The notes under the pieces: model-generated
What the model was told of the DNA's origin: nothing
Seen by the model: only the letters and a program-made list of their open reading frames with translations
The model's database searches: none
Part shown: positions 27,673-47,495 of the stretch, one piece after another
Numbering within the stretch: position 1 is the stretch's first letter
Layout of the letters: every line of letters starts with the position of its first letter
Position numbers and translations under genes: made by a program
Assembly: GCA_012690745.1 (NCBI GenBank)
Contig: GCA_012690745.1_4086.1
From: a phage
DNA length: 64,000 nt
Strand: one strand, 5' to 3'

Positions 27673-27697
27673 AGGGAGCCTTAGCTCCCTTTTTTTA
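27673..27697 (+). terminator. Rho-independent terminator after gp46 (overlaps the stop of the convergent minus-strand gene)
   Basis: Stem AGGGAGC / GCTCCCT with a 4-nt loop followed by TTTTTTT. Confidence 0.65.
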
Positions 27698-28172
27698 TAT
27701 CTACCATATTTAATTTACCGTCCTTAATTAGCTTTCTAGCTTGTTTAGTTCTTTCCTTGACGTTACCTCCAGGAACTACTCCTAAATCGCTTAGAATGGC
27801 GTTCTGCTGCGTTGCTGGAAGCCTTTTAAACTTAGCTACGTCAACGGTTAATGCCGTGTGGTGAATGACCTGCTCATCTTCTGGTATATGATTGTTCCTT
27901 TCAAGATAATCTGCCAGATTACGCAATACTTCATGTAATGGCTTATCAGTTAAATGACTTAGGCATCGTTTATATGAGTTTGCTACTCTCCCTTCCCATC
28001 CATTCACTTCGTTTTGAAGAACCTGCCTACAATGTTGATTTCCACCATGATAATGGTCCAGTACTGGTTTTGTTATTTCTATACCAATTATAGGGTCAAT
28101 CCCATTCTGCTTCTTTAATAGTTCATTTCGATAAGATGCTGCTTCTTTAGGATTTTTTAATCTCTTTTTCAT
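27681..28172 (-). CDS. Endonuclease VII-like / HNH-type nuclease (163 aa)
   Basis: LDHYHGGNQHCRQVLQNEVNGWEG resembles the T4 endonuclease VII HNH-like motif (LDHDHE...G.VRGLLC..CN...G as recalled). Confidence 0.4.
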   Translation of the reverse strand: MKKRLKNPKEAASYRNELLKKQNGIDPIIGIEITKPVLDHYHGGNQHCRQVLQNEVNGWEGRVANSYKRCLSHLTDKPLHEVLRNLADYLERNNHIPEDEQVIHHTALTVDVAKFKRLPATQQNAILSDLGVVPGGNVKERTKQARKLIKDGKLNMVDIKKGS

Positions 28173-28232
28173 AGCTGTTTGTCCTGTTTTGTTAAATAAA
28201 GTATATTAAAAAGTTTTGTGAGGTACAATAGA

Positions 28233-29180
28233 ATGGCTAAAATGACACAACAACAATTTATAGATAAATCAATTAATCTACATGGTAGTATTTACACCTA
28301 CAATAACACCGTGTATGTTAATGCACATCAACCAGTGTCTATTACATGTAAAATTCATGGTGACTTTACGGTAGTTCCTAATAAACATATTTCCGCAAAG
28401 CAAGGTTGTCCGGTTTGTTCTGATATTGCAAAGAAAGAACGTAAATCTAAAAAGTCACTGGAGTCATTCTTTACTGAAGCAAAAGAAGTACACGGTGATA
28501 AGTATGATTACTCTAAAGTGTTTTTCAACATTCGTTCAGAGAAAATTACTATCATATGCAAAGAAGAAGGTCATGGTGAATTTAATCAGGTAGTTAGTAA
28601 TCACCTAGCTGGACAGGGTTGCCCTGAATGCTCCAAAGCACTTATTGGTTTAAAGAAAAGAACACCAGAAGATGTATTCTTTGAAGATTGTAAGTACATT
28701 CATATGGATGCATACGACTACTCCAATACAAAATATAATGGTATGTATGAAACAATTACACCAGTATGCAAACGTCATGGAGAATTCACAGTACTGGCAA
28801 CTAAACATTATCATAGAAAGCAAGGTTGTCCGGTTTGTTCTGACATGGAACTAAAGTCAAGACCAGTTATTGAAATTCAGAATTTTTTAAAAGAGTATGA
28901 TATAATATTTGAAATGGAAAAGAAGTTTGATGGTTGTAAAAATATAAACCATTTACCATTTGATTTTTATATTCCTTCACTGAATCTTCTAATAGAGTAT
29001 GATGGTATTCAACACTTCAAACCAATAGAGTACTTTGGTGGTAAACAAGCTTTAGCTGAACAGCAAAGAAATGATGAAATAAAAAATCAATTCTGTTTTA
29101 ATAACAACATTACTCTTCTTAGAATAAAGTATTTCGAAGATCATATTAAAATCATCAAAGACTATATATCAAAACTTTAA
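28233..29180 (+). CDS. Homing-endonuclease-like protein: three tandem zinc-ribbon repeats plus a C-terminal PD-(D/E)xK (Vsr/DUF559-like) nuclease domain
   Basis: Three copies of the repeat (Y-x-Y ... HGEF/HGDF ... GQGCP-x-C). C-terminal FDFYIPSLNLLIEYDGIQHF is typical of Vsr-like PD-(D/E)xK domains. The track ORF starts at GTG 28218; the ATG at 28233 has an RBS. Confidence 0.55.
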   Translation: MAKMTQQQFIDKSINLHGSIYTYNNTVYVNAHQPVSITCKIHGDFTVVPNKHISAKQGCPVCSDIAKKERKSKKSLESFFTEAKEVHGDKYDYSKVFFNIRSEKITIICKEEGHGEFNQVVSNHLAGQGCPECSKALIGLKKRTPEDVFFEDCKYIHMDAYDYSNTKYNGMYETITPVCKRHGEFTVLATKHYHRKQGCPVCSDMELKSRPVIEIQNFLKEYDIIFEMEKKFDGCKNINHLPFDFYIPSLNLLIEYDGIQHFKPIEYFGGKQALAEQQRNDEIKNQFCFNNNITLLRIKYFEDHIKIIKDYISKL

Positions 29181-29203
29181 AATATGATATAGTTTTTTTA
29201 GAA

Positions 29204-29235
29204 CCAAGTAATAAAAATGTTACTTGGGTTTTTAT
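29204..29235 (+). terminator. Rho-independent terminator after the homing-endonuclease-like gene
   Basis: Eight-bp stem CCAAGTAA / TTACTTGG with an 8-nt loop followed by GTTTTTAT. Confidence 0.55.
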
Positions 29236-29305
29236 ATGTGTAAAAGTTGGAACTAAGTACTTAATGAATATTTTTATAAAAATAGTGAGACAACTTTAAA
29301 GTTTG

Positions 29306-29993: not shown

Positions 29994-30021
29994 AAAAAAA
30001 AAACCAGCAACAATGTGCTGG
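29994..30021 (-). terminator. Rho-independent terminator (minus strand) after the 69-aa gene
   Basis: Stem CCAGCA / TGCTGG preceded on the plus strand by A10, which is a U10 tract after the hairpin on the minus strand. Confidence 0.65.
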
Positions 30022-36435: not shown

Positions 36436-37059
36436 ATGAGTAGTATGATTCGTGAATGGTCTTCATTCAATGATTCTAAAGTTGTTTTGGAACATCGTGA
36501 TAATGGATTTGGTGGGCGTGACTGCTATCTTCGTGGTATTGCTATTCAAGCCGACCAACGAAATTTGAACGAGAGAATTTACCCTTTATCTGAAATTACA
36601 AGGGCAGTAAATAACATGAACCAGCGTTTAGCTAAAGGTGAAAGCATTCTTGTTGAATGTGACCATCCAGAAACACTAACTATTAACCTAGACCGTGTAG
36701 CAGCAATGATTACTAAGGTTTGGATGGAAGGTGCTAATGGTATGGCAGAAATCAAACTACTTGATACTGCACATGGTCAGAATATCCGTAAAATGCTAGA
36801 GGCTGGTGTAAAACTTGGTGTAAGTTCTCGCGGTTCCGGTAACGTTGATTATAATGGAATAGTTTCTGATTTTGAAATTATCACTATTGATATTGTTGCT
36901 CAACCTAGTGCTCCAGAAGCATACCCAACAGCGGTATTTGAATCTCTGATGAGTAAGTACGGATCACCTTGTAATAGTTCTAAAAAAATCACTGAATCTA
37001 AAAAAGTAAATAATTTAGATTCTGAAATATACGATTTTTTCAAGAAATTAAAAGGTTAA
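36436..37059 (+). CDS. gp21: Prohead core protease (gp21-like)
   Basis: CYLRGIAIQADQRNLNERIYP, ECDHP and GVSSRGSG match conserved T4 gp21 segments. Confidence 0.8.
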   Translation: MSSMIREWSSFNDSKVVLEHRDNGFGGRDCYLRGIAIQADQRNLNERIYPLSEITRAVNNMNQRLAKGESILVECDHPETLTINLDRVAAMITKVWMEGANGMAEIKLLDTAHGQNIRKMLEAGVKLGVSSRGSGNVDYNGIVSDFEIITIDIVAQPSAPEAYPTAVFESLMSKYGSPCNSSKKITESKKVNNLDSEIYDFFKKLKG

Positions 37060-37070
37060 CATTTTAAAAA

Positions 37071-37078
37071 TATAAATA
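37071..37078 (+). promoter_or_regulatory. T4-type late promoter (TATAAATA)
   Basis: Perfect octamer about 48 nt upstream of the scaffold gene ATG; a hairpin ATCTGTA...TACAGAT lies in the leader. Confidence 0.45.
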
Positions 37079-37125
37079 TCTGTATGTTGAAGTACAGATA
37101 TTTCAGTACTTAAAGGAGAGAACGA

Positions 37126-38241
37126 ATGTCTAAATTAGAAAAGCTTCTAAAAGAATCATCTCTTTCTGATGAGGCAAAACAGCTAATTCAGGAAGCATGG
37201 AATGAAGAAAAGAATACACTAGCCGCAGAGATGCGTGAAGAAATGAAAGGCCGTTATCAGCAAGATTTGGCTGAACTAACCGAAGGTTTGAACACTATGG
37301 TTACTCAAGTCATTTCTGAAGAAATGGGTGCTGTATATGAAGAGAAAAAACGTCTCGTTGAAGATCGTGTAACTCTACGTAAAACACTAAGCAATTTCTC
37401 TGCGTTTTCAAACTCTGTTTTGGCTGAAGAAGTTAAACAAATGCGTAAAGAACGTAAGCATCTTCATGAATGCATGGGTAAATTCGTTAATTTTTCTAAC
37501 GGTATCCTAGCAGAAGAGCTAAAAGAATTCCACACTGAAAAACGCCAACTAGTAGAAACTCGCGTTAAACTACTTGCTGAAGGTTCACGTCAAATTGCTG
37601 AAGCTCGTAATAACTTCATCAAACGTACATCTGAAAGTGCTGCTAAATATATTGCAGAAACCACTCAGAAGAATCTATATGCGTTGAAACAAGATCTAGT
37701 GGAAGCAAAACAAAATATGTTTGGTCGTAAAATCTTTGAAGCATTTGCTCAAGAGTTTAATGTCAAACAATTTAATGAAAACTCATTGCTACGTTCCCTA
37801 ACTGAATCAATTAAATCCAAAGAAGATGAAATTGCTCAAGTTAAGCAAGAACTACATGAAACTGCTAATGCGGTTAAAGCTGCTAAAACCAAACTACGTA
37901 TTATGGAAGATGCACAAGCACGTAATGCGATTATGTCTGAACTAGTAAAACCACTAACTGCACAGCAAAAACAAATTATGGAATCCCTTCTAGCTACTTC
38001 ACCTACTGAAAAGCTTAAAGAAGATTTCAGCAAGTACCATAAGTCAGTACTTAACGGTACTAAAGTAAATGAATCTGCTACCACTCGTCAAGCAGTTCAG
38101 TCTTCCGCTAAGAAAACTCTTGCAGAAGGTAAAGTAATCACTGGCAACCGTCAGGCTATTGTTGAAAGCGAAGAAATGACCGCTGACGATATGGCATTCC
38201 TAAAAGAACTCGATGTTCTTTCAGGTATCAATAAAAAATAA
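37126..38241 (+). CDS. gp22: Prohead scaffold protein (gp22-like), coiled-coil rich
   Basis: Lys/Glu/Ala/Gln-rich predicted helical protein between the protease and capsid genes. Confidence 0.6.
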   Translation: MSKLEKLLKESSLSDEAKQLIQEAWNEEKNTLAAEMREEMKGRYQQDLAELTEGLNTMVTQVISEEMGAVYEEKKRLVEDRVTLRKTLSNFSAFSNSVLAEEVKQMRKERKHLHECMGKFVNFSNGILAEELKEFHTEKRQLVETRVKLLAEGSRQIAEARNNFIKRTSESAAKYIAETTQKNLYALKQDLVEAKQNMFGRKIFEAFAQEFNVKQFNENSLLRSLTESIKSKEDEIAQVKQELHETANAVKAAKTKLRIMEDAQARNAIMSELVKPLTAQQKQIMESLLATSPTEKLKEDFSKYHKSVLNGTKVNESATTRQAVQSSAKKTLAEGKVITGNRQAIVESEEMTADDMAFLKELDVLSGINKK

Positions 38242-38279
38242 ACATTTTAAAGCATTTTAATAATCAAATTTTTCAGTTC

Positions 38280-38287
38280 TATAAATA
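38280..38287 (+). promoter_or_regulatory. T4-type late promoter (TATAAATA) for the major capsid gene
   Basis: Perfect octamer about 45 nt upstream of ATG 38333; the leader is shared with the acidic-protein gene. Confidence 0.5.
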
Positions 38288-38332
38288 ATATCATACTGAA
38301 AAACGAATATAACATCTTTAAGGAGATATATA

Positions 38333-39508
38333 ATGTCACAACTACTAAATGAATCCAAATGGGTAGCAGTAAAAGAGAAACTAGTTGAAGGTCTACAGGG
38401 TACTCGTAAGTCTGTAATGGAAACTGTTCTTGATAACCATCGTAAAGTTATGCTAACTGAATCCGCAACTTCTGGTGCAACTACCGCTGGTAACATCGCT
38501 ACTCTAAACAAAGTGATTCTACCAATTATGCGTCGTGTAATGCCAACCGTTATTGCTAACGAAATCATCGGTGTTCAACCTATGACTGGTCCAGTTGGTC
38601 AGATCCACACCCTACGTGTACAATATGCTGATAACGCACCTGGTGTAATCGCTGGTGAAGAAATGCTTTCTCCATACAAAATCGCTAAATCTTACTCTGG
38701 TGATCTAAATGCGGATAATAGCAACCCACAAGCTGCTCCTACTAGCCAACTAGAAGGTACTATGGGTCGTCGCGTTAACATCCGTATTCTACGTGAAACT
38801 GTTGAAGCGAAATCTCGTCGTCTATCTGCACGTTGGACTGTTGAATCTGCACAAGATGCACAATCCCAACATGGTGTTGACGTTGAAGCAGAACTAATGG
38901 CTGCAATCGCTCAAGAAGTTACCGTAGAAATCGACCAAGAGCTACTAAGCCGTCTACGTGCACTACCTGGTGCTGCTGCTGTAACTTATGACCAATCTAA
39001 AGTTACTGGTGTTGCAACCTTCGTTGGTGATGAGCACGCTGCTCTAGCAACTCTAATTAACCGTCAAGCAAACGAAGTTGCTCGTCGTACTAAGCGTGGT
39101 GCTGCAAACTGGGCTGTTGTTTCCCCAACTGCACTAACCATTCTACAATCTGCTACTACTTCTAGCTTTGCACGTACCACTGAAGGTACTTTCGAAGCCC
39201 CAACTAACGTTAAGTTTGTAGGTACTCTAAACAGCACTATGCGTATTTTTGTTGATACTTATGCAAGTGATGCAGAAGATATTCTAATTGGTTATAAAGG
39301 TAATGCAGAAACTGATGCTGGTGTGTTCTATTGCCCATACATCCCACTAATGGCTTCCGGTACTGTAATGGACCCTAACACTGGGGAATTGGTCACAACT
39401 TTCCTTACCAGGTATGGTTATGTACAATTGACTGATAGTACTTCTTCTCTTGGTAACGCTGCTGACTACTACAGCAAAATCGCTATCAAAAACGTTACTT
39501 TCATGTAA
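38333..39508 (+). CDS. gp23: Major capsid protein (gp23/gp24 family), short 391-aa form
   Basis: IATLNKVILPIMRRVMPTVIANEIIGVQPMTGPVGQIHTLRVQYAD parallels T4 gp23 (IAFDICGVQPMNSPTGQVFALRAVYG as recalled). Confidence 0.85.
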   Translation: MSQLLNESKWVAVKEKLVEGLQGTRKSVMETVLDNHRKVMLTESATSGATTAGNIATLNKVILPIMRRVMPTVIANEIIGVQPMTGPVGQIHTLRVQYADNAPGVIAGEEMLSPYKIAKSYSGDLNADNSNPQAAPTSQLEGTMGRRVNIRILRETVEAKSRRLSARWTVESAQDAQSQHGVDVEAELMAAIAQEVTVEIDQELLSRLRALPGAAAVTYDQSKVTGVATFVGDEHAALATLINRQANEVARRTKRGAANWAVVSPTALTILQSATTSSFARTTEGTFEAPTNVKFVGTLNSTMRIFVDTYASDAEDILIGYKGNAETDAGVFYCPYIPLMASGTVMDPNTGELVTTFLTRYGYVQLTDSTSSLGNAADYYSKIAIKNVTFM

Positions 39509-39552
39509 TTGTAATCGATTTAAAAGATTTAATCAAGAAATTAAAAACAATA

Positions 39553-39581
39553 GGGACTCTTCGGAGTCCCTTTTCTTTTTT
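39553..39581 (+). terminator. Rho-independent terminator after the capsid gene
   Basis: Stem GGGACTC / GAGTCCC with a TTCG loop followed by TTTTCTTTTTT. Confidence 0.7.
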
Positions 39582-39584
39582 GTG

Positions 39585-39613
39585 TTGACATGTCACATTT
39601 TTTGTGTAATAAT
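39585..39613 (+). promoter_or_regulatory. Sigma70-like promoter (TTGACA - 17 bp - AATAAT) upstream of the split homing-endonuclease gene
   Basis: Perfect -35 hexamer TTGACA; -10-like AATAAT at 17-bp spacing. Confidence 0.45.
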
Positions 39614-39641
39614 ACGCGTACATTATAAATGAAGAAGAGAA

Positions 39642-40566
39642 ATGACAATGAATCCAAATGAAGAAAAATTTATTAATACAGTGAATGAAAAGTATGGTAC
39701 TGGTGTGTATTTGTTTGATAAAATGGTATATATTAATGCTCATAAACAGGTTGAACTTTATTGTGTAGAAGGTGGTCATTATTTCAAAATCACTCCTATG
39801 CAAATAGTCCGACCTTCTGCAAAAGGATGTAACATTTGTCAAAAAAAACACAGCATACACGACCGAAACGTTTATTGAAAAAGTTAAAACCATCCATCCA
39901 ACATTGTCATTTGAGAAAACTATCTACAAAAAACAAAGTGACAGTAATGGGCGAGTCATCGTTACATGTCATAATGATCCGAATGATGTGCATGATTGGG
40001 AAGTATCAGCCGCAACATTATTAAAAGGAAAAACTAGTTGTGGAATATGTTCTGGTAAAGGTGGAAGAAGTACTGAACGTTTCATTGAACTTGTGTCGCC
40101 TATCCATAACCATAAGTATGATTATAGCTTGGTGGATTACAAGACTAGTGATGAACATGTGGATATTATTTGTCCTGAACATGGTGTCTTTAAACAAATA
40201 CCCAAATCTCATATGGCAGGAAGAGGATGTCCATCATGTGGTGAGTATGGTTATCAACCATCAAAACCTGGATATTTCTATGTTCAAAAACTAACTAACA
40301 ATGACAAGACGGTGTACAAGTATGGAATCACTGGTGATATGAAACGCCGTGTAAACGAACAAAGTCGCAATTCTGAGTTCGAGCATGAAGTACTTGTAGA
40401 ACGCTACTTTGAAGATGGCAATCAACCATTACTGTTGGAAAAGTTCATAAAGAAATACATTGAAAGTGGTGTTGTAAGTACTGAAGAGTTATCGTCAGGA
40501 TTTACTGAAACATTTGATGCTAAGTATCTTGAAAGTGTTTTAGAAATTGTAAATACTTTTAAGTAA
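39642..40566 (+). pseudogene. Homing-endonuclease-like gene (zinc-ribbon repeats plus T5orf172/GIY-YIG-like domain) split by a frameshift at an A8 run
   Basis: ORFs 39642-39878 and 39904-40566 carry the same repeats as the 28233 gene. Removing one A from the A8 run at about 39841-39848 joins them in frame (…NICQKNTAYTTETFIEKVKTIHPTLSFEKTIYKK…). Confidence 0.5.
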
Positions 40567-40589
40567 ACAATCTAAAGGAGTTGACACGG

Positions 40590-40940
40590 ATGTTAACTGT
40601 ATACAAATTTAACAAAGAAGAGTACTTAAAGAGTCAGTACTCAAATATAGAAATAAATGTTCCTTATGGTACGTTAGTTGGATATGATGAAGCCACTGAA
40701 ACATTGTATTATAATGATGATAGATTGGATTATAGTTTAGATTCTTTCATAGAAGATATACTTAATACACATACTGAAGATATGTTGTATGAAGAATACA
40801 TCGATCATTATAGAGAACGTATGTCGGTGCTGCATTCTGATGCTCCTGTGCTAAACATTGCACAAGAACCATCGGAATTTCAGCCACATAATCCTTTTCA
40901 ACGTTTAATTGATATTGGTTTAAAATTCACTATTAGTTGA
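40590..40940 (+). CDS. Hypothetical protein (~116 aa)
   Basis: ORF with AGGAG upstream of ATG 40590; the track start 40581 is TTG. Confidence 0.4.
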   Translation: MLTVYKFNKEEYLKSQYSNIEINVPYGTLVGYDEATETLYYNDDRLDYSLDSFIEDILNTHTEDMLYEEYIDHYRERMSVLHSDAPVLNIAQEPSEFQPHNPFQRLIDIGLKFTIS

Positions 40941-40978
40941 TAGATAAATATCTCCATATTAATGATGGAGATTGAATC

Positions 40979-41288
40979 TATGTCACAGATATGTTATGTT
41001 ATAATAAACTCTGCATGGCCTGACTATGTTAAGATTGGTTTCACTTCTAAATCTGAAATGACAGAGCGTTTGAGAACGTATCAGACAGCTACCCCGTTTC
41101 GTGATTTTGAAGTTTATCATGAAGTTCACTTTGAAGACGCACGTTTAGCTGAAAAAGAGATACATAAAAGGCTTAAACAAATGAATGCAACTAGACAACC
41201 AAACACGGAGTGGTTTAAAATGTCTAAAAAGATAGCAGCAAACATCATTGATTCTGTGTGGGATGATATGGATAACGACTTGCTATAG
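40979..41288 (+). CDS. Small stand-alone T5orf172/GIY-YIG-like domain protein
   Basis: CYVIIN...YVKIGFTS...RL..YQT...EVHFED parallels the C-terminal domain of the adjacent split gene (YFYVQK...YKYGITGD...EVLVERYFED). Confidence 0.45.
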
Positions 41289-41328
41289 GAATAAATATAG
41301 TATATATTAATCATAAAGGGATTTATAC

Positions 41329-42939
41329 ATGAGCATAAGTTTTAATAACCCATTGGATACAATGACCAGTACTGGTGCTAATGGATCTTTAGAACTAATA
41401 GTGCTTGGTGGTACACCAACTAACCCAAGACCTATTCGTTTTAATTCGTCATCAGTTATTATACCAGTACAAACGTTACCTACTGGTGAACAAGGTGCAA
41501 TGGTTTTTGATCGAAACGAATTAGTTTTGAAGTATCATAACGGTACAAGTTGGATTGCAGTATACGATACTGATACTATTTTGGAACCAATTAGAATTTC
41601 ATTAGATGAAGTAAACAGAAAATTAAATTTAAAAGTAGAAAGTGTAACATACAGTAGTAGTACTGTTCCTAGTGCAAGTATTAGTGGAACAAACTTAAAC
41701 ATTGTATTCCCTACTGCTTCTAGTGGTGGTTCTGGTCCAACTGGTCTTTACACTTCACTTAAACCAGGTGCTATTACACAATATTCATTGACTTCTGGTC
41801 AATCTGTTGCTAGTATACGTGAACAAATGTCAGGACAATCGAATGGACAAAGTGGGAGAAACGGTTCACAAGGTGCTCCGTGGAAAACGTCTGACGGTTG
41901 GTGTTTTGCTGATGGTATGTGGTGGCAATGGGAGGGGGAAAATGGTACAATTACCAAACAAGTACCAAACCTTAACCAAAACGCGTACTTAAAAGGGATA
42001 TCCACATCAGGTGTAACTAAAACTGATAGTGTTATTGGTAGTAGCGGTAATATTAGCGGCACAGTATTAAGTGTTGCCCAATTACCATCACACTCATTTA
42101 GTTTTAGTGGGACCACAGGGGCTGCTGGTCGTCATGGTCATAGTCAAGCACTAAAAGGTATGGACCGTAGTGGTCTAAATGCGTTAACTTCAAGTAATGA
42201 TAACGGTATACCAACTGTAATCAATAACATTAACGAAGCACCAGACCACATTCACTCATTTAGTGGAAACACTAACACACTTGGTGGAAACCAACCACAC
42301 TATCATGGTATTAGTAACATTGATGTGGAACACTTTAACGTTGCATATCTATATAACATTGCTGAATCTAACGTCGCATTGAGTGAAAAAGTTGCAAACA
42401 CTCGTTATGTACTAAAAACTGGTGATACAATGACTGGTTCATTGACTATTGCAAACAGTGCGTCAATTAAGTCAAATGATACATCATTAGTTCTATATTT
42501 CCGTAACGCAAGCGGTGGTGAGCGTGCGGCAGTGTATCATAACTCTTCAAATAATACATTGAGATTACGTTCCGGTGGAGCAGAAGTTACTGTAAACTCT
42601 TCTGGTACTTTAGCTGCTCCATCATTAACTGTTTCTAACAACTCAGCTACTGTTGGTGGTAAAAATATTGTTCGTTCAATTAACGGTACTGCTGCTGATG
42701 CTAGTGGCAACGTTACTTTGCAAATTAGTACTAATAACGTACAAAGTATTCGTTTGAGTGCACGTATTGAAACAAGTAAAATACCTGATTCTTCATGGAC
42801 ATATACACCAGAAGGTGCATTTATGGATGGCGTATGGATTTCTGTTAATGGTAGTTCAGGCACTCACTTAGAACGAATTAGTTATCGCTATGTTCAAATG
42901 CAAATAAATGGTAACTGGGAAACAGTACGTCAACAATAA
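41329..42939 (+). CDS. Tail fiber / short tail fiber-like protein with collar-type His motifs
   Basis: Ser/Thr/Gly-rich repetitive sequence. HxH-type motifs (PDHIHSFSG, PHYHG, GRHGH) resembling the phage tail-collar / gp12 receptor-binding region. Confidence 0.45.
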   Translation: MSISFNNPLDTMTSTGANGSLELIVLGGTPTNPRPIRFNSSSVIIPVQTLPTGEQGAMVFDRNELVLKYHNGTSWIAVYDTDTILEPIRISLDEVNRKLNLKVESVTYSSSTVPSASISGTNLNIVFPTASSGGSGPTGLYTSLKPGAITQYSLTSGQSVASIREQMSGQSNGQSGRNGSQGAPWKTSDGWCFADGMWWQWEGENGTITKQVPNLNQNAYLKGISTSGVTKTDSVIGSSGNISGTVLSVAQLPSHSFSFSGTTGAAGRHGHSQALKGMDRSGLNALTSSNDNGIPTVINNINEAPDHIHSFSGNTNTLGGNQPHYHGISNIDVEHFNVAYLYNIAESNVALSEKVANTRYVLKTGDTMTGSLTIANSASIKSNDTSLVLYFRNASGGERAAVYHNSSNNTLRLRSGGAEVTVNSSGTLAAPSLTVSNNSATVGGKNIVRSINGTAADASGNVTLQISTNNVQSIRLSARIETSKIPDSSWTYTPEGAFMDGVWISVNGSSGTHLERISYRYVQMQINGNWETVRQQ

Positions 42940-42949
42940 GGAATGTGTA

Positions 42950-43465
42950 ATGCAACTAACAAATTTTAAGATGTATGAAAAAGAAGGTGGTAATCCTAAT
43001 TCTTTGTATATGATGTCCGATGAAGGTATGGATTGGTATGAATCTCGTGAATTGTTTGACATTAATAAAGCAAAATTTATGTATGATACTAATGGTTTAA
43101 TTGTTTCAGCATCATATAACATTTATGATCTAGTACCTTTAGGTTTTAGTGTTTCTGAAATTGAATATGATGGTGATATTAACAAACTTTATGGTATGGT
43201 TTACGATGGAAATACTATTCATGACTATATTGAAACTAAAGAAGAAAAAATTGAACGCCTAAAAAATGAATTATCTAATTTGAAATACATTGCAATTCAA
43301 GAACTTGGACACTTAAAAACTGCTATGGATCTTGAGTTAGCAACTGATGAAGAAGCTGTATTGTTTGTAAAATTGAAAGATTATGTAACGCAATTGAATT
43401 CAATCAAACCAGCAGACATGATCAAGAAAACATTTTCATTTCCAGTTAAACCGGAAAAAAAATGA
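42950..43465 (+). CDS. Putative tail fiber assembly chaperone
   Basis: Small gene immediately after the fibre-like gene with overlapping RBS. Position-based; weak. Confidence 0.3.
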   Translation: MQLTNFKMYEKEGGNPNSLYMMSDEGMDWYESRELFDINKAKFMYDTNGLIVSASYNIYDLVPLGFSVSEIEYDGDINKLYGMVYDGNTIHDYIETKEEKIERLKNELSNLKYIAIQELGHLKTAMDLELATDEEAVLFVKLKDYVTQLNSIKPADMIKKTFSFPVKPEKK

Positions 43466-43494
43466 GACAACACGTAAAGACGTGATACAATTAA

Positions 43495-43530
43495 GTCATC
43501 TCACCGATTGTGGTGAGGTGACATTTTTTT
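43495..43530 (+). terminator. Rho-independent terminator
   Basis: About 11-bp stem (GTCATCTCACC / GGTGAGGTGAC, one mismatch) followed by ATTTTTTT. Confidence 0.65.
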
Positions 43531-43555
43531 GAAAACACACATGGAGAAATACAAA

Positions 43556-43858
43556 ATGGCTAAATCTAAAAAAGAAGTTAAAGTTGAAATTCGTGATCTA
43601 AACGATGAACAACGTAAACGTCTCGGTGACGCACTTAACAACATTGTTGTACAACTAACTTTCATTGATGATACCAAAGCATCCTTATCTGATTTTGTTT
43701 CTAGTGTTTCTGATGAACTTGGTATCGATGCATCTGATATCAAACAAGCTGCACAACGTATGTACAAAGGTGATTACTTTGACAAACAAAATAAACTCGA
43801 TAATATCGAAACTATTCTTAGTGTTACTAATAATCTTCCACAAGCAGATGATTACTAA
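43556..43858 (+). CDS. Hypothetical protein (100 aa)
   Basis: ORF with GGAG RBS, bounded by terminators. Confidence 0.4.
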   Translation: MAKSKKEVKVEIRDLNDEQRKRLGDALNNIVVQLTFIDDTKASLSDFVSSVSDELGIDASDIKQAAQRMYKGDYFDKQNKLDNIETILSVTNNLPQADDY

Positions 43859-47430: not shown

Positions 47431-47495
47431 GGTGCTTGTAGTAATCTTACATAAAAAAACATTTTTGATTAACAAATAAAACGGAGAATTATATA

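Follow-up and report, generated by a model that had tools for sequence, protein, structure and literature searches.

A Recent, Isolate-Specific Frameshift Probably Splits a T5orf172-Type Homing Endonuclease Gene in an Asteriusvirus-Type Jumbo Coliphage

Introduction

Homing endonuclease genes (HEGs) of the T5orf172 type encode zinc fingers arranged as "beads on a string" (CapR, DUF723 and DUF4379), lie near capsid genes, vary in presence from phage to phage and are unstable through frameshifts (PMC10448857). The ICP1/T5-like members of this group (Barth, Nguyen and Seed 2023, PMC10448857) are the closest described relatives of the gene reported here, which lies in a 64,000-nucleotide stretch of phage DNA (the window). 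The two are alike in having a C-terminal T5orf172/GIY-YIG domain together with CapR/DUF723/DUF4379-type modules, as well as in their location at capsid genes, their presence or absence between near-identical phages and an apparent frameshift inactivation in single isolates. They differ in that the window belongs to an Asteriusvirus jumbo coliphage, in that the Pfam T5orf172 score is sub-threshold and in that homing and cleavage by this allele group are putative. Other GIY-YIG enzymes, those of the free-standing T4 seg genes and I-TevI, which an intron encodes, have the nuclease at the N-terminus, whereas the window gene has it at the C-terminus. I-TevI also binds DNA through a helix-turn-helix and minor-groove elements, in contrast to the Zn ribbons of the window gene.

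The gene is broken at a run of As, and this invites comparison with IS transposases, Shigella mxiE, Thermus dnaX and the A-tract genes of endosymbionts. In these systems an open reading frame (ORF) is likewise broken at an A run, and changes of tract length in the RNA fuse the frames. Homologues in those systems keep both the out-of-frame state and the run, which is usually 9 nt or longer, whereas the relatives of the window gene have A7 and are in frame. The event that the window gene would need, removal of one A from the A8, is also one that has gone unseen with E. coli RNA polymerase (RNAP). A second frame of reference is the model of Goddard and Burt, reportedly of 1999, in which homing endonucleases pass through a cycle of gain, fixation, degeneration and loss. 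At the locus described here, PBECO4 has an empty site, slurp01, G17, 121Q and SHEFM2K have intact alleles and the window has what is probably a freshly broken one, and the window allele would be an example of the degeneration step, with no substantive difference from the model.

Results

Gene Structure and Domain Architecture

Two plus-strand ORFs make up the locus, the first at 39642-39878 (78 aa, ATG start, frame 0) and the second at 39904-40566 (220 aa, TTG start, frame +1 relative to the first). The sequence between the two frames, TGT CAAAAAAAAC, contains eight As at 39841-39848. The initial annotation had read the two ORFs as halves of one gene separated by a surplus A, and both parts of this reading were borne out: deletion of one A from the run yielded a single ORF of 307 aa without a stop, and nine related phages encode intact orthologues of 305-307 aa, each collinear with the repaired product. 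The coordinates of the locus and of its counterparts in related phages are given in Table 1.

Table 1. Features of the split gene, its insertion site and the corresponding site in three related phages.
Feature	Position	Strand	Description
Intrinsic terminator of the major capsid gene	39552-39581	+	Hairpin 39552-39571 and T-tract; left edge of the insertion site
Homing-endonuclease cassette, 1,007 bp	39583-40589	+	Promoter, RBS, gene and replacement RBS for the downstream gene
Sigma-70-type promoter-like site	39585-39613	+	TTGACA-17-AATAAT with TG (extended -10); 11/12 positions matched, best in the region
Upstream fragment	39642-39878	+	Residues 1-68 native (first Zn-ribbon module), then 10 out-of-frame residues and TGA
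A8 homopolymer, site of the +1A insertion	39841-39848	+	Relatives have A7 (CAA AAA AAC/T = Q-K-N)
Remainder of the gene, +1 frame	39847-40566	+	Zn-ribbon modules 2 and 3, T5orf172/GIY-YIG nuclease domain
Conserved downstream gene, 116 aa	40590-40940	+	ATG at 40590 after AAAGGAG; right edge of the insertion site
121Q allele, same site	L010 1756-2853		365 aa, four Zn modules
SHEFM2K allele, same site	L012 1749-2747		332 aa, divergent
PBECO4 empty site	L011 1610-1727		Cassette absent

The single-gene reading had at first been tied to an "intact paralogue" at 28233, and this part of the claim held only in a reduced form. ORF 28218-29180 (plus strand, 320 aa) does share three Zn-ribbon modules with the repaired protein at 23-32% identity, in an alignment that crosses the junction, but its C-terminal domain is a different one, with a weak match to DUF2726 and no match to T5orf172. 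As the homology is confined to the Zn-ribbon repeats, this ORF is a partial paralogue, and we rejected it as a true full-length one. The decisive support for a single gene comes instead from the nine collinear orthologues.

The region of this second ORF also showed features of its own. Window positions 28174-29253, with modules of the DUF723/DUF4379 kinds, constitute a second homing-endonuclease-like insertion that is absent from G17. Beside it, positions 27744-28173 (the 5' part of an endonuclease VII-like gene on the minus strand, 27681-28172) differ strongly from G17 through numerous mismatches and short indels, whereas the rest of the 62 kb compared is about 99% identical. From the alignment, this flank looks like a co-conversion or recombination boundary beside an HEG.

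The repaired protein matched phrog_681, "endonuclease", with E = 1e-63, and the 78-aa upstream fragment matched the same family by itself (E = 2.6e-7). Among Pfam families, the treble-clef Zn-finger family DUF4379 was above the cut-off, T5orf172 (PF10544) was sub-threshold at 16.9 bits (E 0.009; cut-off 20 bits), and MUG113 and DUF723 were sub-threshold too; a search of NCBIfam gave zero matches. Nearly all of the 217 relatives retrieved in a database search carry DUF723/DUF4379 and some carry T5orf172/MUG113. When aligned homologues were searched individually, 15 out of 40 matched PF10544 at E<=0.01, the best at 9.5e-9. A profile of the C-terminal domain also matched the T5orf172 protein encoded at 40962-41288 with a probability of 91% (hhalign, E 1.1e-6), and the UniRef name of an intact orthologue is "GIY-YIG nuclease family protein".

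Residue conservation was consistent with these matches. Three Cys/His Zn-ribbon modules (C41/C63/C66, C109/C133/C136 and C177/C196/C199) are invariant. In the C-terminal domain, K226, G228, E266, G286 and E289 are invariant and Y213, I229, R236 and F291 are conserved in at least 90% of 39-40 homologues, at identities down to 27%. These residues form the GIY...(K/Y)xG...R...E pattern of T5orf172/GIY-YIG nucleases; by analogy, the Tyr of "GIY", the "YIG"-like K-x-G-I, the Arg and the Glu may have catalytic roles. Structure prediction was carried out on a 94%-identical orthologue (P0004) in place of the repaired window protein, and the predicted fold has the beta-beta-alpha-beta-alpha core of the GIY-YIG family. 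The proposed order of Zn-ribbon repeats followed by a T5orf172/GIY-YIG-like domain is supported by the three invariant modules, the C-terminal residue pattern and the profile match. We conclude that the intact gene is a free-standing HEG and that its product, with three tandem Zn-ribbon modules and a C-terminal nuclease domain, falls within the T5orf172 branch of the GIY-YIG superfamily.

Insertion Site and Alleles in Related Phages

The major capsid gene (38333-39508) lies directly 5' of the terminator that forms the left edge of the insertion site. This terminator is a strong one, with an 8-bp stem of which five pairs are GC and the tail TTTTCTTTTTT; PBECO4, 121Q and SHEFM2K have kept it, and the G17 annotation lists it as a terminator. 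When PBECO4 was compared with the window by blastn, homology ended at 39582 and restarted at 40590, so the intervening cassette brings with it a putative promoter, the gene and a new ribosome-binding site (RBS), AAAGGAG, for the downstream gene. At this site PBECO4 has 44 unrelated bases, and its annotation passes from the capsid gene directly to a 351-nt ORF. The consensus-like promoter noted in the initial annotation was recovered upstream of the gene, and weaker sigma-70-like matches around it were no commoner than in shuffled sequence. The other alleles have promoter-like sites as well, TTTACA-17-TATAAT in 121Q and TTGTGA-17-TATTAT in SHEFM2K.

The gene is absent from PBECO4 and from Salmonella SD phages, although their flanks are 98-99% identical. 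Taken over all the phages compared, the site 3' of the capsid-gene terminator has at least three HEG alleles, each with its own sigma-70-like promoter, and one empty state, between flanks that are about 99% identical. An empty site, several alleles and an essential capsid gene as neighbour are the genomic hallmarks of a free-standing HEG. The description of the gene as homing-endonuclease-like thus stands on its presence or absence at a fixed site, on its alternative alleles and on the adjoining capsid gene, and the intact protein presumably homes.

A gene 400 nt downstream of the HEG specifies a stand-alone T5orf172/MUG113 protein (40962-41288, plus strand, 108 aa, 50 bits). The protein is without a DNA-binding module and is also found in PBECO4, which is without the HEG. 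This protein may be a remnant of an HEG or a domesticated nuclease domain.

Sequence identity places the window in an Asteriusvirus-type Escherichia jumbo phage of the 121Q/PBECO4/slurp01 group. The window is 99.2-99.7% identical to Asteriusvirus phages. The region of the gene is 99.4-99.7% identical to IA-38, ECO103 4-12-1, EC22.5-2, slurp01, G17 and Sharanji, and more distant from Ecwhy_1, WPEC5, E9.1, 121Q, PBECO4 and others; no record in the phage collection was identical to the window. Over 1.4 kb, the sole indel between the window and the six close relatives is the A run, which is A7 in all six. E9.1 has A7 in frame (CAAAAAAAC), and Ecwhy_1 and WPEC5 have A7 with different flanking bases (CCAAAAAAAT), which still encodes Q-K-N in frame. 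All nine relatives with the window-type allele therefore combine A7 with an intact ORF, with products annotated at 305-307 aa, and 121Q has AATAAAAAT at this position, without a run. Since none of these nine departs from A7 in frame and 121Q lacks an A run, the A8 of the window is derived and unique. All of these phages, 121Q included, have a single intact ORF, and A7 is the ancestral state.

In the 90%-identity cluster of a collection of 15 billion proteins, at least about 45 contigs encoded an intact form, and the split form came from a single Logan contig and a single NCBI contig. Searches of IMG/VR viral and JGI metagenome contigs with exact and degenerate DNA patterns across the A run, for A7 and for A8, gave no match, and the cassette had no match in complete E. 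coli genomes; no extra alleles were thus available from these sources. Many intact copies are deposited as "Escherichia coli" proteins on contigs of 340-360 kb, and the contig with the split copy is one of 95.9 kb from an E. coli WGS assembly. Phage gene copies filed in this way indicate that Asteriusvirus genomes recur in assemblies of E. coli isolates, through a carrier state or contamination.

Authenticity and Age of the Additional A

A surplus A in a homopolymer might be an artefact, with the phage truly A7, its gene intact and the eighth A a miscall in the consensus. A single-base difference in an 8-nt homopolymer is the commonest type of consensus error on some platforms, and the A7 of nine out of nine relatives with the window-type allele would fit such an error. 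However, an independent assembly repeated the A8. The Logan assembly, built with k-mers straight from the raw reads of run SRR3205935, contained a contig of 34,373 bp with 100% identity to window positions 36642-43566, A8 included, and the gene caller on that contig likewise gave products of 78 and 220 aa. At NCBI, the 76-aa hypothetical protein EFJ0710127.1, from a 95,914-bp E. coli WGS contig, equals the first ORF from its second Met and includes the out-of-frame tail; a separate look-up of contigs encoding this product gave no record. The Logan and NCBI contigs with A8 may come from the same isolate, although their assembly pipelines differ; an error common to both would be conceivable if they share one read set from a homopolymer-prone platform. 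Full-text searching for SRR3205935 turned up no paper.

The distribution of other indels also bears on this question. Over 62 kb of alignment with G17, the remaining small indels are homopolymer-length changes and all are intergenic, often beside RBSs or terminators (29994-30003, with A10 versus A7 at 29994, as well as 47453-47466, 49522, 56288 and 2977). Random miscalls in homopolymers would mostly strike coding DNA, which is about 90% of the sequence, and the intergenic pattern is instead what selection on real mutations leaves. About 19 other coding runs of A or T of at least 7 nt occur in the window and all are in frame, including two A8 runs (24592 and 43455). The window allele also has a unique non-synonymous change, P284S, and this too speaks against an artefact. 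With A8 in two assemblies and the other coding homopolymers in frame, a sequencing or assembly error is unlikely, and the additional A is probably a real mutation.

Comparison with other alleles suggested that this mutation is recent. For the repaired window allele against that of Ecwhy_1 and WPEC5, dN/dS is 0.07 at a dS of about 0.5, with values of 0.02 before the run and 0.08 after it. Low values on both sides of the run indicate that both halves were maintained as coding sequence, and the gene, its downstream half included, had been under strong purifying selection. The window and slurp01 differ in the HEG by three non-synonymous and no synonymous changes. Together with the low dN/dS, this indicates selection on the coding sequence up to the very recent past. 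Two of the three differences arose on the slurp01 side, as the window shares T13 and G45 with more distant alleles; at P284S, all other compared alleles have Pro. The change at codon 45 (window position 39774) falls in the first Zn-ribbon module, where the slurp01/G17 clade has Cys (VEGCH) in place of the Gly (VEGGH) of the window and more distant alleles. From these counts, the frameshift would post-date all synonymous divergence from the nearest relatives, and the lesion appears to be very young, with too little time for visible decay.

The age of the lesion is also relevant to the idea that the split gene has working pieces, either a 78-aa DNA-binding fragment that occupies, for instance, the HEG target or a promoter, or a re-initiated 220-aa nuclease with altered specificity. 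The frameshift does fall exactly after the first complete module (C41...C63-x2-C66), a stand-alone T5orf172 protein is encoded nearby, and stand-alone DNA-binding domains derived from T5orf172 HEGs exist, such as CapR (PMC10448857). Yet the split arrangement is present in one isolate only, and zero synonymous differences from intact relatives leave no time for selection to have shaped it. No Shine-Dalgarno sequence was found before the TTG at 39904 or before later in-frame starts of the downstream fragment, and independent translation of the second ORF was rejected on this ground. We therefore regard functional fragments as highly improbable, and a pseudogene remains the preferred reading.

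Prospects for Expression across the A8 Run

Expression could also depend on slippage, in which case the A8 would yield a small, controlled amount of full-length nuclease by transcriptional slippage or ribosomal frameshifting. The length of the run is near the threshold for RNAP slippage, the heptamer A_AAA_AAA has the phase of a -1 slippery sequence, and low expression would suit a nuclease. The direction of the shift is wrong for the heptamer, though: as the downstream frame is +1, a -1 shift leads into the third frame, which is closed at 40024, and programmed -1 frameshifting was rejected. Restoration would need a ribosomal +1 or -2 shift, or a transcript that loses one A or gains two. The 82 nt downstream of the run are less structured than shuffled controls (MFE -2 kcal/mol, z +1.7), and the shift site has no stop or rare codon to stimulate a +1 shift. 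Ribosome sliding needs longer tracts. It has been described on poly(A) for longer iterated AAA tracts (PMC4363877).

As to transcriptional slippage, reporter assays with E. coli RNAP detected none on fewer than eight As, and rescue of the deletion type was undetected on every poly(A) run tested there (PMC6260861). Across genomes, slippery runs are typically avoided only from 9 nt upwards (PMC1088944). At the lower limit of detection of RNAP slippage, A8 might still give a trace of full-length product, which is not expected to be of importance. The out-of-frame state, moreover, is not conserved, the relatives being in frame with A7 or an interrupted run, and slippage is for this reason implausible as a designed feature. 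We consider the chance of slippage-dependent expression to be very small. A related scenario is that the A7/A8 tract is a reversible phase-variation switch for the HEG, or that rare loss of an A in transcripts keeps up a trickle of nuclease, with A8 as a maintained silent state; to this we likewise give very little credence.

Discussion

The three explanations offered in the initial annotation did not fare equally. A recent pseudogene is favoured, as the A8 is unique and two assemblies agree on it; a homopolymer error is disfavoured, and designed slippage does not hold because the shift is not conserved. The split HEG is thus likely to be a very young, isolate-specific pseudogene that arose by the gain of a single A in A7. 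In the sequence of events that we propose, replication slippage at the homopolymer would have added one A to the in-frame A7 of the Gln-Lys-Asn codons. Translation would then stop 10 codons on, after the first DNA-binding module, and would leave the remaining 240 codons, nuclease domain included, out of frame and without a ribosome-binding site of their own. The nuclease would accordingly no longer be made in meaningful amounts. Decay of a selfish gene that is dispensable to the phage would be expected to begin with such a lesion. The one tolerated coding frameshift sits in a class of gene that the phage can lose, as purifying selection would leave it.

For annotation, the two hypothetical proteins at this locus should be replaced by one frameshifted HEG pseudogene. 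The process is known and expected and involves no new mechanism, and the finding matters little beyond annotation. The locus nevertheless provides a natural series of the HEG life cycle in jumbo coliphages, with one empty state, three alleles that are intact and a fourth that has probably been freshly broken.
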